Below are positions 57,973-63,421 of a stretch of 64,000 bases of DNA, piece by piece (position 1 is the first letter of the stretch; each line of letters opens with the position of its first letter). The translations under genes and the position numbers were made by a program. Where the stretch lies: the NCBI RefSeq assembly GCF_054482525.1, contig NZ_CM137006.1; one strand, 5' to 3'. The notes under the pieces were generated by a model. The model did no database searches. It had not been told where the DNA came from and worked only from the letters and a program-made list of their open reading frames with translations.

Positions 57973-58220
57973 TATTTATTCTCCAGCCATGGAAGTAGAG
58001 TTTCCATTAATTGCGCAGGGGTTTTGACATCCAGCAGAATATTAATAGGAATGGAAATATCGAATCTGTCTTCCAGCATCATTAAGAGATCCATCACTTT
58101 GATCGACTCCAGGCCAAGATCGTTGACGAGATCGCTGTCGGGCTTAATTTCCACACCGTTTTCGACCAAATCCTGTAAACAGGAAAGGATGTAATCCATT
58201 ACTATTTCACGATTTACCAT
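57972..58220 (-). CDS. Acyl carrier protein-like
   Basis: 82-aa acidic ORF with DLGLESIK phosphopantetheine-site-like motif. Confidence 0.7.
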   Translation of the reverse strand: MVNREIVMDYILSCLQDLVENGVEIKPDSDLVNDLGLESIKVMDLLMMLEDRFDISIPINILLDVKTPAQLMETLLPWLENK

Positions 58221-58251
58221 AGAAACGTTAACACACCTTTAAACAAGACAA

Positions 58252-59166
58252 TCAAAATAGCCCGTTGCGTAATGCGTGTTCCAGGCTAATCCCGGGAAAC
58301 CAATTAATATCTTCAGAAATACGGTTATTACTTGCCGACCAGTCGGCGTGGGTTAATTCACGAATTTTCGAGCGGGTCAGCATAGGTTCTTTACCTGCCA
58401 GGCGACTCAACGCGGTACTGATATCCGCAAGGCCGGTGAGTACCGGCAGAGGAATGCCAACCATTCGCACGGAACCGCAACGGGCGTCGGCGGCAAGTTG
58501 CTGTACGCGTTGCCAGTCATAGCCGCCGACGACGCCATCGCATAATTCATAGGTTTGCGTCTGTATAGTTTCGGCGCTTAACCACTGACCCACTGCTTGC
58601 GCGAAATCGGTGACGTGCAGAAAAGAGAGCTGTGTATCTGGCGCACCAAGTCGTGGCAGCAGGCCGCGCAGCATCCAGTCAAACAGCGGTTTTAACTCTT
58701 TATCGCCGGGACCATACACGGCTGTCGGGCGAAAAACGCCCAGCGTAATTTCGTCCGCCATTGCTGCCAGTCGTTGCTCGGCGACGTATTTGGATTTTGC
58801 ATACCAGGAGAGCTCGGGATGGCGCGCCGCCAGCGAAGAGATAAACAGAAAACGTTGGCAAAAGCCGCTCTCTTTTGCTGCTTGCATCAGGCGCAGGCTG
58901 CCGTCAACGTTACAGCGGGTGAAAATCTCTTCTTTGTGCCCGCGCACTTGCCCGGCGCAATGGACCACTACGCTGGCTCCGGCAACCAGCTCGCTAAGTG
59001 AATGAGTATCTTCCAGCGAACCGCGCACCCAGGTGAGATTATCATTGACGTGAGCGCGGGCAGTACGCGTCAATGCGCGAACGTGAAAGCCGCGGGCGAG
59101 CAGGTTATCGATAATATATTTACCGATAAACCCGGTAGCGCCCGTCACCGCGACAGTTTGATTCAT
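58252..59166 (-). CDS. NAD(P)-dependent epimerase/dehydratase-family reductase (extended SDR)
   Basis: 304-aa ORF with N-terminal GATGFIG Rossmann motif and YxxxK; 4-nt overlap with upstream ligase gene. Confidence 0.8.
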   Translation of the reverse strand: MNQTVAVTGATGFIGKYIIDNLLARGFHVRALTRTARAHVNDNLTWVRGSLEDTHSLSELVAGASVVVHCAGQVRGHKEEIFTRCNVDGSLRLMQAAKESGFCQRFLFISSLAARHPELSWYAKSKYVAEQRLAAMADEITLGVFRPTAVYGPGDKELKPLFDWMLRGLLPRLGAPDTQLSFLHVTDFAQAVGQWLSAETIQTQTYELCDGVVGGYDWQRVQQLAADARCGSVRMVGIPLPVLTGLADISTALSRLAGKEPMLTRSKIRELTHADWSASNNRISEDINWFPGISLEHALRNGLF

Positions 59167-60914
59167 GCCAGGGATTCCTGCACATTAAGACTGGCAGCAT
59201 AAGCCTTCTGATAACGTTTTTTCGCTTCCGCACGGGCAGGCTTGCCGGAGGACGTTCGGGGAATACTGTGGGGCGGCAACAGATCGATAGCCGCGGTCAC
59301 GCCAAATTCGCTTTGGATCCGTGCCGCCAGCGCGTGGATAAGCTGCCCGCGACGTTCTTCGTCGCTGATCCGACACTGGATCTGCAAAATGATTTTTTCC
59401 TGGGCGGTAACAAAAGCAATCGCATCGCCAGAATGAATTTCCGGTTCCTGTTCCGCTATATATTCAATATCCTGCGGCCAGATATTACGGCCACGAATAA
59501 TAATCAGATCTTTAATGCGTCCGGTGACATACAGATAACCGTCCAGCAGATAACCGAGGTCGCCGGTGTCTAACCAGCCCGTCGCGGCAATCTCGTCTTG
59601 CGAAACCTGGTCGCCAAAGTAACCGCTCATCAGACTGGGACCGGAGATGCAAATATGGCCTACCACACGTTCCGCGACCGGCATACCTGCTTCATTGCGG
59701 ATTTCAATACCATGTTCCGGCAACGCTTTGCCGCAGTTGACGAAAGTCGATACGGCGCGTGTCTCTGCACCCGGCGCGACGGCTTTACCCTGATATTCGA
59801 GGATGTCGCGATCCACTTCGTTAACCACAACCCCGGAGGCTTCATCAGAGAAGCTGACAGCCAGCGCATTTTCTGCCAGTCCGTAGCACGGCATGAAAGT
59901 TTTATCGTCAAAGTTGACCTGACGGAAACATTCAGCGAATTGATGGAGTTGTTCTGCGGAGATGGGTTCTGCACCAATACCAGCGACGCGCCAGCAGGAA
60001 AGATCCAGTTCAGCGAGATCTTTTTCATTCACGCGGCGCTGGCACAATTCATAGCCAAACGGCGGCGCAACGGAAACGGTGCCGCGATTTTTACTGATCA
60101 ATTTAAGCCATTGCAGAGGACGCATGGCAAAATCCTGAGTGCGCAAATAATCTACTGAGAGTTGCGTGGCGACGGGGGTCAGGAGAAAGCCGACCAGTCC
60201 CATATCATGGTAGAAAGGCAGCCAGGAGACGCAGCGGTCGCCAGGGCGTAATTTTATGCCATCGTGGCTTATAGCACGTAGATTAGCCATCACTTCGCGA
60301 TGGGTGATAATGACGCCACGGGGAAAACGGGTGCTGCCGGAGGTGTACTGGAGGTAGGCGATATCGTTCGGAACTGGACGCTGGAGCGCAACATCGGCTT
60401 CCGGTAATGCCTTAAACCAGGCGTGGCTTAAAACATGTAATTCGGGGTTGTTGTTATGCGTCGCGGCATTGACCAGTGGCAACCACTCATCACCAGTGAT
60501 AATGGCTGCGGGCTGGCAACTTGCCAGTAAACCCTGCAGCTTGGCGCTCCAGGAATCCCGCTGACCGACGCCCATGGGAATCGCCAACGGGACGGCGACT
60601 AAGCCGGCATACTGGCAGGCAAAAAAAGCCTCTACGAACCCGCTACTGGTTTCGGCAATCAGTGCCACGCGATCGCCTTTTTTCAGGTTTAGCGATAACA
60701 ACCGCTTCGCACCAGCTTCGGCACGCGCTTTTAACGTCTGATATTCCAGTTGATCTTCAAGTTGGCAACGTCTGTCATAAAAATTCATTCCAGCGCTACT
60801 CAGAGCGGCATAGTCCAAAGCATCAACCAGCGTTGGAAAATCGGCATAGCGCATAGGTAGGGAATGCGTAAAGATTTTATTAGACATATACACCACGAAA
60901 AAATTGGATATCAA
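59163..60914 (-). CDS. Fatty acyl-AMP ligase / acyl-CoA synthetase family (start uncertain: M1 at 60914 or M10 at 60887)
   Basis: 583-aa ORF with AMP-binding core YTSGSTRFPRG and C-terminal SSGK; resembles FAAL enzymes. Confidence 0.8.
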   Translation of the reverse strand: MISNFFVVYMSNKIFTHSLPMRYADFPTLVDALDYAALSSAGMNFYDRRCQLEDQLEYQTLKARAEAGAKRLLSLNLKKGDRVALIAETSSGFVEAFFACQYAGLVAVPLAIPMGVGQRDSWSAKLQGLLASCQPAAIITGDEWLPLVNAATHNNNPELHVLSHAWFKALPEADVALQRPVPNDIAYLQYTSGSTRFPRGVIITHREVMANLRAISHDGIKLRPGDRCVSWLPFYHDMGLVGFLLTPVATQLSVDYLRTQDFAMRPLQWLKLISKNRGTVSVAPPFGYELCQRRVNEKDLAELDLSCWRVAGIGAEPISAEQLHQFAECFRQVNFDDKTFMPCYGLAENALAVSFSDEASGVVVNEVDRDILEYQGKAVAPGAETRAVSTFVNCGKALPEHGIEIRNEAGMPVAERVVGHICISGPSLMSGYFGDQVSQDEIAATGWLDTGDLGYLLDGYLYVTGRIKDLIIIRGRNIWPQDIEYIAEQEPEIHSGDAIAFVTAQEKIILQIQCRISDEERRGQLIHALAARIQSEFGVTAAIDLLPPHSIPRTSSGKPARAEAKKRYQKAYAASLNVQESLA

Positions 60915-61257
60915 AAATAAAATGACAATAATGCGGTGGATTATATAGGCATAAAAGATAAATGAGATAGTATTTTCATCAGTGTGAAAATGAACATTGA
61001 TTTAAATAATGAATTTGAGTTTTTTGTTTTTATTGTGAATGATATTTAATTTATGAATATATTAAGAAGGAGCCTTGTCCGGTCGCCTTAAATCGACAAA
61101 AGGCATTGTGGCGCTTCTGTGTAGTCTCTGACCTTATCGTAATCATTAATAAATACTATTTATTCGTCGTTTGTATTCATTGGGTTGATTATTAAGGTGC
61201 CGTTCGTTGCTGTTGCAACCTGTTTGTCACCGTTAATTATTTGTTACCCACAGAACT

Positions 61258-62400
61258 ATGGAATGCGATCTGCTGATGATTAAAATTGAAAAAGTAATTA
61301 ATAAAAATGACCTTAAGGCATTTATCGCTTTTCCGTCATCACTTTATCCCGACGATCCAAACTGGATACCCCCTTTATTCATTGAACGCAACGAGCATTT
61401 GTCTGCGAAAAATCCGGGGACGGACCATATCATCTGGCAGGCGTGGGTGGCAAAAAAAGCGGGGCAGATAGTTGGGCGTATTACCGCGCAAATAGATACC
61501 TTGCACCGCGAGCGTTACGGCAAAGATACCGGTCATTTCGGCATGATTGACGCCATTGATGATCCGCAGGTTTTTGCCGCGTTGTTTGGCGCAGCGGAAG
61601 CGTGGTTGAAGTCACAAGGTGCAAGTAAGATCAGCGGGCCTTTCAGCCTGAATATCAATCAGGAAAGCGGATTACTGATTGAAGGTTTTGACACTCCGCC
61701 CTGTGCGATGATGCCACACGGCAAACCGTGGTATGCCGCGCATATTGAACAACTGGGTTATCACAAAGGCATTGATTTACTGGCGTGGTGGATGCAGCGA
61801 ACCGATCTCACTTTCTCTCCGGCGCTAAAAAAACTGATGGATCAGGTGCGCAAAAAGGTGACCATTCGCTGCATCAATCGTCAGCGGTTTGCCGAAGAGA
61901 TGCAGATCCTGCGTGAGATTTTCAACTCTGGCTGGCAGCACAACTGGGGATTTGTGCCGTTTACCGAACATGAATTCGCGACCATGGGCGATCAACTTAA
62001 ATATCTGGTGCCGGACGATATGATCTATATCGCTGAGATTGATTCTGCACCCTGCGCGTTTATTGTCGGCTTGCCGAACATCAACGAGGCGATTGCCGAT
62101 CTGAACGGATCGCTCTTTCCCTTCGGCTGGGCAAAATTGCTGTGGCGTTTGAAAGTCAGCGGTGTGCGAACTGCGCGAGTACCGCTGATGGGCGTGCGCG
62201 ACGAGTATCAGTTCAGCCGCATCGGCCCGGTGATTGCGCTGTTATTGATTGAAGCCTTACGCGATCCGTTTGCCCGCCGGAAGATCGATGCGCTGGAGAT
62301 GTCATGGATCCTCGAAACCAATACAGGCATGAATAACATGCTGGAACGCATTGGGGCGGAGCCGTACAAGCGTTACCGATTGTATGAAAAGCAAATTTAA
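61258..62400 (+). CDS. yghO: YghO family protein, intact (function unknown; possible N-acyltransferase-like fold)
   Basis: 380-aa ORF recognised as YghO; divergent from ligase operon. Confidence 0.7.
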   Translation: MECDLLMIKIEKVINKNDLKAFIAFPSSLYPDDPNWIPPLFIERNEHLSAKNPGTDHIIWQAWVAKKAGQIVGRITAQIDTLHRERYGKDTGHFGMIDAIDDPQVFAALFGAAEAWLKSQGASKISGPFSLNINQESGLLIEGFDTPPCAMMPHGKPWYAAHIEQLGYHKGIDLLAWWMQRTDLTFSPALKKLMDQVRKKVTIRCINRQRFAEEMQILREIFNSGWQHNWGFVPFTEHEFATMGDQLKYLVPDDMIYIAEIDSAPCAFIVGLPNINEAIADLNGSLFPFGWAKLLWRLKVSGVRTARVPLMGVRDEYQFSRIGPVIALLLIEALRDPFARRKIDALEMSWILETNTGMNNMLERIGAEPYKRYRLYEKQI

Positions 62401-62406
62401 TACCAG

Positions 62407-63171
62407 CTAACTCAGGTTCATCTCCAGCGGCACCGCCGAGCGAATCAAATGGTGGCCTTCCAGCTCGATATCGTGGAGATTCTTTTTCACGGTCCGCACA
62501 TGATCGCGTGCTGCGCGCTGGGCGACGTGCGGCAGCCGCTGCAACACCGCGTTGTAGATCCGCGCATGCTGGCGATCGATCTGCTTTTTTTGCTGTGGTC
62601 GATGGTAGAGATTATTTACGCTGGCAAACACTGAATTAAACATCAGATCGGTCAATGATTGCAGCGTAAACACCAGCACCTGATTGTGAGAAGCCTGACA
62701 AATGGCGAGATGGAAAGCGTGATCCAACTGCGCATGTTCGATCAGCGAAATCTCTTTGTTATTCTCACTGGCGGCGAGCATTTTTTCATAACAGCGAGTT
62801 ATCACAACAAAATCAGCCTGCGTTCCCAGCGTTGCCGCCAGCCTTGCCGATTCGCCCTCCAGTAATGCGCGAACGTCGAGCAGATCGTACAGCGTTCGCG
62901 GCTGCGTGCTGAACAGATGAATTAGCGGGCTGGTGTCCTGCACCCGATTAAGCCGTGCGACACGAGAATCGCGACCCTGCGCCGTTTCAATAATCCCGCG
63001 CCCGCGCAGCACGGTCAGCCCTTCACGCAGTGCGGAGCGTGAGAAGCCGAGCTTTTCACACAGTCGACGTTCCGAGGGAAGCGGCTGACCGACCTTCAGT
63101 ACGCCGTCGATAATTAACCGTTCGATACTCTCTGCAACCACTTCGCAAATAGGGCGACGTTCATCTTTCAT
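62407..63171 (-). CDS. glcC: GntR/FadR-family glycolate regulator
   Basis: ORF track 62407..63231; start trimmed to MKDERRPICEVV (254 aa). Confidence 0.9.
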   Translation of the reverse strand: MKDERRPICEVVAESIERLIIDGVLKVGQPLPSERRLCEKLGFSRSALREGLTVLRGRGIIETAQGRDSRVARLNRVQDTSPLIHLFSTQPRTLYDLLDVRALLEGESARLAATLGTQADFVVITRCYEKMLAASENNKEISLIEHAQLDHAFHLAICQASHNQVLVFTLQSLTDLMFNSVFASVNNLYHRPQQKKQIDRQHARIYNAVLQRLPHVAQRAARDHVRTVKKNLHDIELEGHHLIRSAVPLEMNLS

Positions 63172-63421
63172 TCCCGGACCTCGTGCACAGGTAGGACCAA
63201 TTTTTCTGTTCTTAACTCGCAAAACACGCACATCACGTAAGTGATTATGTTACATCAATTTAACATTGAGTTAACCAAGACAAGGTCACAGAGCTGGAAA
63301 AAAAATGGTCTGACCGGTAGCTAAAGAGATAGACGAAAACGAAAAGCCCGCTTAATAACTGTTCACAGAAGCAGCGCGCAAAAATCAGCTGCCACACAAC
63401 ACAACAAAGCGAAGCCTACTC

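Follow-up and report, generated by a model that had tools for sequence, protein, structure and literature searches.

yghO lies on the E. coli chromosome within the window, by which we mean the whole 64,000-nt stretch that was analysed (contig NZ_CM137006.1 of assembly GCF_054482525.1). The genes around it are ordered gss, pitB, yghT, IS1, an acyl carrier protein (ACP) gene, an epimerase-family gene, a fatty acyl-AMP ligase gene, yghO, and glcC (Table 1). A first-pass annotation had described a full 380-aa YghO reading frame, transcribed divergently from the ligase operon across a shared AT-rich spacer, and both statements are correct. The frame is the same as that of the PGAP entry "protein YghO" (WP_001300526.1), which has identical coordinates in strain 20A24, a strain whose sequence is 100% identical to the window over positions 56000–63300. 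The ligase, reductase, and ACP genes are also equal in length to their PGAP annotation, and the spacer measures 370 bp if the PGAP start of the ligase is taken. A promoter and terminator scan of the spacer returned two sites, which is not above the 3.3 ± 1.9 expected by chance, and no Rfam RNA family was found within positions 60500–62600. The glcC gene was considered as a partner of yghO and rejected; the flank beyond yghO differs in Serratia, where the glcC side is not kept, and glcC is therefore placed outside the yghO system. The annotated GlcC has 254 aa and ends at 63171; the longest open reading frame of glcC (62407–63231, GTG start, 274 aa) is 20 codons longer, a start-codon artefact of the reading frame listing and no real difference.

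Table 1. Features of the yghO region, in positions of the window.
Feature	Position	Strand	Description
yghT	56118..56810	-	P-loop protein of dTMP-kinase type; outer edge of the locus
yghS remnant	56984..57116	+	About the first 44 codons
IS1A	57117..57884	-	768 bp, inverted repeats at both ends
spt (serine palmitoyltransferase) remnant	57885..57972	-	First 88 nt only
acpR	57972..58220	-	Specialised acyl carrier protein AcpR, 82 aa
cerR	58252..59166	-	NAD-dependent epimerase/dehydratase-family reductase, CerR/Epi homologue, 304 aa
aasR	59163..60914	-	Fatty acyl-AMP ligase AasR, specialised acyl-ACP synthetase; NF006624, 874 bits; PGAP start 60887 gives 574 aa
Divergent AT-rich intergenic region	60915..61257		343 bp between the longest ORFs; 31.8% GC against 51.2% for the window
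yghO	61258..62400	+	380 aa longest ORF, ATG 61258 to stop 62400; predicted tandem-GNAT N-acyltransferase, bCerS/CC_1154 homologue
K-12 IS5 junction equivalent	61297..61298		K-12 native sequence only from 61298 on
glcC	62407..63171	-	Glycolate regulator, convergent with yghO

In Serratia, Pluralibacter, Erwinia, Hafnia, and further genera of the Enterobacterales, YghO orthologues have 374 aa and begin at the residue equivalent to Met-7 (ATG 61276), which defines a conserved core of 374 aa; the six additional N-terminal codons are specific to E. coli. In most of the loci examined from other genera (window 61230–61276 compared with L004 and L007–L023) the ATG equivalent to 61276 has an AAGG Shine-Dalgarno-like motif upstream. 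The motif has been lost in E. coli, where a new in-frame ATG has arisen 18 nt further upstream, at 61258, so that the E. coli start, at 61258 or 61276, is uncertain. For the coding sequence, dN/dS is 0.04–0.07 (about 0.05) in comparison with other Enterobacterales.

The operon facing yghO is broken in the window, a point that the first-pass annotation overlooked. The flanks of IS1A correspond to positions 1542 and 9001 of the intact locus of strain MSB1_7A (L002), placing the IS1 element where 7,458 bp would otherwise lie. Lost with that segment are yghS from about codon 45, yghR, yghQ, a hypothetical gene, a YtfJ-family gene, the lptF-like and lptG-like genes, and all of spt apart from 88 nt. 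The first enzyme of the pathway (Spt) is thus gone, with yghO, aasR, cerR, and acpR intact, and the same arrangement is common to 40 of the 5,426 complete E. coli genomes. Because spt and the exporter genes were deleted by IS1, YghO is probably without an endogenous substrate in this strain. YghO of the window lineage is a well-preserved predicted enzyme, and it should remain inactive in cells that receive no sphingoid base.

The K-12 copy, which the first-pass annotation had described as disrupted near an IS5, was compared with the window by pairwise alignment, and the description proved accurate. In MG1655, IS5LO (3130146–3131340) overlaps the 5' end of the annotated yghO (b2981), a 390-aa frame that carries the description "putative DNA-binding transcriptional regulator" and extends 70 nt into the element. 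The K-12 matches (H53 and H54) cover positions 41–1143 of the yghO query; the native start of the gene (40 nt) and all sequence preceding it are absent, and K-12 yghO is therefore not the full-length native gene. Relative to the intact MSB1_7A locus, 8,389 bp are missing from K-12 and IS5 stands in their place. This loss comprises the 3' end of yghQ, the hypothetical gene, the YtfJ-family gene, the lptF-like and lptG-like genes, spt, the ACP, reductase, and ligase genes, the spacer including the promoter region, and 40 nt at the start of yghO. The N-terminus annotated for the K-12 protein, MMNPVLWLQMTNMISYQGLVRTFL, is encoded by IS5, and the residues replaced include the first β-strand of the AlphaFold2 model; in a K-12 derivative, PGAP calls a 378-aa version of YghO. 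The native part of the K-12 gene differs from the window by four synonymous and no nonsynonymous substitutions, which indicates that the IS5 event is recent. K-12 yghO is thus an IS5 chimera, still annotated as a gene and lacking its own promoter and start, and is the remnant of an 8.4-kb deletion that took the whole sphingolipid locus. The window strain lost spt to IS1 independently of K-12.

Further insertion sequence events are seen at the locus. Strain ETEC1746 (L090), which lacks yghO, carries an IS1 together with a large deletion that reaches the fec island and pheV, and in strain 2023CK-01509 (H81) an IS1 lies inside spt. With the IS5 and 8.4-kb deletion of K-12 (L001/L003) and the IS1 of the window, the locus has been struck by insertion sequences repeatedly and independently.

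Linkage within the species was counted in the 5,426 complete E. coli genomes with a coverage threshold of at least 80%. The yghO query matched 4,548 genomes (4,529 at or above the threshold), the ACP-reductase-ligase block 4,167 (4,108), spt 4,134 (4,093), and a query spanning the ligase, spacer, and yghO junction 4,555 (4,091). With 4,091 junction genomes against 4,108 operon genomes, essentially every genome that has the operon has yghO beside it, so the two do co-occur and the tie between yghO and the ligase operon pathway suggested by the first-pass annotation is borne out. In about 75% of the complete genomes, spt, the operon, and yghO are all retained. A further group of about 460 genomes has yghO without the junction or operon, and these are mostly K-12 laboratory strains among the matches listed; yghO is absent from about 870 complete genomes (about 16%). 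An intact yghO, present in about 75% of complete genomes, is therefore the norm in E. coli, with K-12 as the exception; being the majority state, the intact gene of the window is not remarkable.

Outside E. coli, yghO and aasR-cerR-acpR-spt are likewise paired divergently in Serratia, Erwinia, Hafnia, Pseudomonas, Salinisphaera, and Desulfobacterales metagenome-assembled genomes (MAGs), so that the arrangement is conserved. The wider scan took one genome per species, used a 12-sequence alignment as query, and gave 80 loci at 47–96% identity, which were searched by tblastn with MSB1_7A proteins as queries; 60 of them had at least 6 kb of upstream sequence and were treated as informative. The adjacent divergent ligase is present in 38 of these 60, ligase, reductase, ACP, and spt occur all together in 37, and lptF/G-like genes are found in 40. 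At least one gene of the sphingolipid locus is present in 59 of the 60 informative loci, and the sole exception is a second copy in Shimwellia. This paralogue of Shimwellia pseudoproteus (L020) is 73–75% identical and has no sphingolipid-related neighbours within about 9–10 kb; the canonical copy (L007) is present in the same genome. Thus spt and cerR accompany yghO in the species and in the family, as they do bCerS/Aca; in the window cerR is present and spt is reduced to 88 nt.

Fusions and other arrangements occur among further members of the family. The metagenomic fusion P0191 (L086, 8001–10823) joins a YghO-like domain to an AMP-binding ligase, and the metagenomic fusion P0132 (L087, 8001–9893) joins a fatty-acid/sphingolipid hydroxylase to a YghO-like domain. 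Both fusions agree with the linkage described above. No spt was found near either fusion gene within their loci. An ACP gene and a ketoacyl synthase gene lie directly downstream of P0132, and in the metagenomic protein P0121 the entire YghO-like unit occurs twice in tandem. The distant member P0131 has a divergent ligase-reductase pair on one side and genes for an NTP transferase, a DAGK_cat kinase, LptF/G-like proteins, and an ABC transporter on the other.

YghO on its own has no Pfam or NCBIfam match at E ≤ 0.01, DNA-binding families included, and a sequence profile search of the PDB gave marginal GNAT matches only (best E = 0.003). The family comprises 6,480 clusters at 50% identity (E ≤ 1e-3), with members typically of 370–400 aa, and the cluster representatives closest to YghO are mostly MAG proteins. 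Pfam GNAT (PF00583) is matched by 68 of 82 aligned members, so that GNAT membership is visible through the family and the predicted structure, and not in the domain scan of YghO itself. The AlphaFold2 model of the 374-residue protein, built on the family alignment, has a pLDDT of 96.7 and a pTM of 0.93 and consists of two GNAT-type α/β domains that fill the whole chain. The CoA-binding part of the GNAT fold is matched in the C-terminal domain. The best Foldseek matches in the PDB are tandem GNATs, namely 2wpw (clavulanate pathway), 5kf1 (glucosamine N-acetyltransferase), 7q3a (MAB_4324), MshD (1ozp, mycothiol synthase), VipF, and Eis, with E values of 1e-15 to 1e-9. All of the best 50 structural matches listed are GNAT-fold acyl or aminoacyl transferases or uncharacterised proteins, and none is a DNA-binding protein. 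The solved tandem GNATs (MshD 1ozp/2c27, 2wpw, 5kf1, MAB_4324 7q3a, and Eis) have the two-GNAT-domain architecture in common with YghO at TM scores of about 0.55–0.63 but are only 9–16% identical to it in sequence. Their acceptors are sugars, thiols, or aminoglycosides, which receive acetyl or other short acyl groups; in contrast to what is proposed here for YghO, no enzyme of this set is an N-acyltransferase of lipids or has a link to spt. YghO therefore resembles bCerS/Aca in having a GNAT acyltransferase fold and neither a transmembrane nor a DNA-binding domain. Proteins 47–63% identical to YghO over about 373 aa are found in loci of Pseudomonas, Nitrosomonas, Salinisphaera, Methylotenera, and Desulfobacterales MAGs in which spt, acpR, cerR, aasR, or lptF/G-like genes are also present, in keeping with homology to bCerS/Aca.

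Taken with this fold and gene neighbourhood, the homology makes it probable that YghO is the ceramide synthase of the locus pathway, an orthologue of bCerS/Aca that would N-acylate the long-chain base made by Spt. In Caulobacter crescentus the corresponding gene is CC_1154 (CCNA_01212), named cerS or bcerS, and dihydroceramide formation has been shown experimentally to depend on it. Padilla-Gómez et al. 2022 (PMC9386255) demonstrated biochemically that AcpR (ECD_02853), AasR (ECD_02851), and SPT (ECD_02854) of E. coli BL21(DE3) make 3-oxo-sphinganine. In their Figure 9 legend the gene is given as "aca: CC_1154, yghO ECD_02850", their Table S2 reports 44% identity, 98% coverage, and E 1e-107 between CC_1154 and ECD_02850 (yghO), and Nitrosomonas eutropha Neut_1100 is also entered as an aca orthologue (PMC9386255). 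When SPT, AcpR, and AasR were overexpressed in BL21(DE3), compounds migrating like sphinganine and ceramide appeared, which the authors credited to the host proteins ECD_02852 and ECD_02850 (PMC9386255). The homology of YghO and the organisation of the locus were thus already published in 2022, and our finding is an ordinary one with nothing new in kind. It does, however, correct the misleading K-12 annotation of YghO as a regulator.

The published homology between YghO and Caulobacter bCerS/Aca spans the full length, and the literature calls the latter an N-acyltransferase, as the GNAT-type fold of YghO also suggests. The two loci are alike in containing spt, acpR, cerR, aasR, and lptF/G paralogues. 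They differ in arrangement, yghO being directly divergent from aasR in E. coli whereas the Caulobacter gene stands several genes off and adjoins lptG2/lptF2, and in accessory genes, the E. coli locus having the YghR/S/T P-loop kinases and YghQ where Caulobacter has the CpgABC head-group genes instead. Unlike the Caulobacter bCerS locus, the window has lost its spt partner gene. Eukaryotic ceramide synthases (Lag1p/CerS, TLC-domain proteins) catalyse the same overall reaction, the N-acylation of a sphingoid base. They are, however, polytopic membrane proteins of unrelated fold, whereas YghO and bCerS are soluble or peripheral GNAT proteins.

In the pathway that we propose for an intact locus, AasR would load a fatty acid onto the dedicated carrier AcpR, and Spt would condense the acyl-AcpR with serine to give 3-oxo-sphinganine. 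YghO would then add the second acyl chain at the amino group, and CerR would reduce the 3-keto group, either before or after the YghO step. The LptF/G-like permeases and the flippase-like protein YghQ may move the lipid outward. We infer the activity of YghO, its acyl donor, native expression of the locus, and native sphingolipid synthesis in E. coli from these comparisons. A 2026 preprint draws the locus of E. coli UTI89 and shows that Caulobacter requires its LptF2/G2 paralogues during synthesis of anionic sphingolipid.

The first-pass annotation had offered YghO as either a regulator or an accessory enzyme of the pathway, and the two halves of that suggestion fare differently. The enzyme half is supported by the tandem-GNAT fold and the homology to bCerS. 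A DNA-binding transcriptional regulator of the divergent operon, as the b2981 annotation has it, is extremely improbable: a few database entries for YghO homologues are likewise named "DNA-binding protein", and a divergent arrangement is common for a regulator and the gene that it controls, but neither a helix-turn-helix nor any other DNA-binding family is found for YghO in Pfam or NCBIfam, and the Caulobacter homologue is a structural gene of ceramide synthesis. The absence of DNA-binding proteins from the best structural matches weighs in the same direction, and since the two GNAT-type domains occupy the entire model, no chain is left over for a DNA-binding domain and the regulator annotation is unsupported.

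The acceptor might instead be an amine other than a sphingoid base, which YghO would N-acylate together with the ligase and ACP, or YghO might have a second role independent of spt. The Shimwellia paralogue and the P0191 and P0132 fusions, which sit in loci without a nearby spt, speak for this, as does the keeping of yghO without spt in K-12 and in the window. We nevertheless consider it unlikely. Wherever enough flanking sequence is available, relatives at 47% identity or more all lie in sphingolipid-type loci, bar the one paralogue, and the retention in K-12 and the window looks recent by the substitution counts given above, so that it is uninformative on selection for a second function. In addition, K-12 YghO, in its IS5-chimeric form, was one of the proteins overexpressed in the lysine-acetyltransferase screen of Christensen et al. 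2018, in which the four KATs identified were other proteins (RimI, YiaC, YjaB, and PhnO). It could also be argued that E. coli no longer expresses or is losing the entire locus, together with yghO, and that the frame is intact by chance. The repeated insertions and deletions (IS5 in K-12, IS1 in the window and in ETEC1746, and IS1 inside spt of 2023CK-01509), the proportion of genomes that lack yghO, and the AT-rich spacer with no consensus promoter above chance all fit such a scenario. It is very improbable, however, given the low dN/dS maintained over long divergence, the retention of spt, operon, and yghO by about three-quarters of complete genomes, and the activity of the expressed E. coli SPT, AcpR, and AasR proteins.

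Assignment of YghO as a ceramide synthase of the sphingolipid pathway is accordingly the reading that we carry forward. No natively made E. coli sphingolipid was reported in the literature searched. Around three-quarters of E. coli and many other Enterobacterales (Serratia, Erwinia, Hafnia, Citrobacter, and Pluralibacter) carry the complete locus under purifying selection. As a possibility that falls a little short of probable, these bacteria may therefore conditionally make a ceramide-based outer-membrane lipid, for which YghO would be the ceramide synthase, the P-loop kinases YghR/S/T, which lack a counterpart in Caulobacter, would provide the head group, and the LptF/G paralogues would serve in export, with the IS5 event masking the lipid in K-12. 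If this is true, the loss of the locus to IS5 kept the lipid out of sight through decades of K-12-based research on E. coli lipids. For work on the question of E. coli sphingolipids, the usable strains are those with an intact junction, about 75% of complete genomes, which excludes both the window lineage and K-12.

YghT, YghS, and YghR are three paralogous P-loop proteins of dTMP-kinase type (L002, 544–2913) that travel with the sphingolipid locus in Enterobacterales, and proteins of this type are also seen in one Pseudomonas and one Methylotenera locus (loci L009, L010, L013, L017, L021, L024, L028, and L034). Since they are not of the DAGK_cat type of the ceramide kinase CpgB, the head-group chemistry of E. 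coli, if any, probably differs from that of Caulobacter. Serratia liquefaciens has the same divergent pair as E. coli, with DAGK and MatE genes, and not glcC, on the other flank. There, a 120-aa gene of the prokaryotic diacylglycerol-kinase family lies directly downstream of yghO on the same strand (L004/L005, 11352–11716), and its product is a possible lipid-kinase partner.
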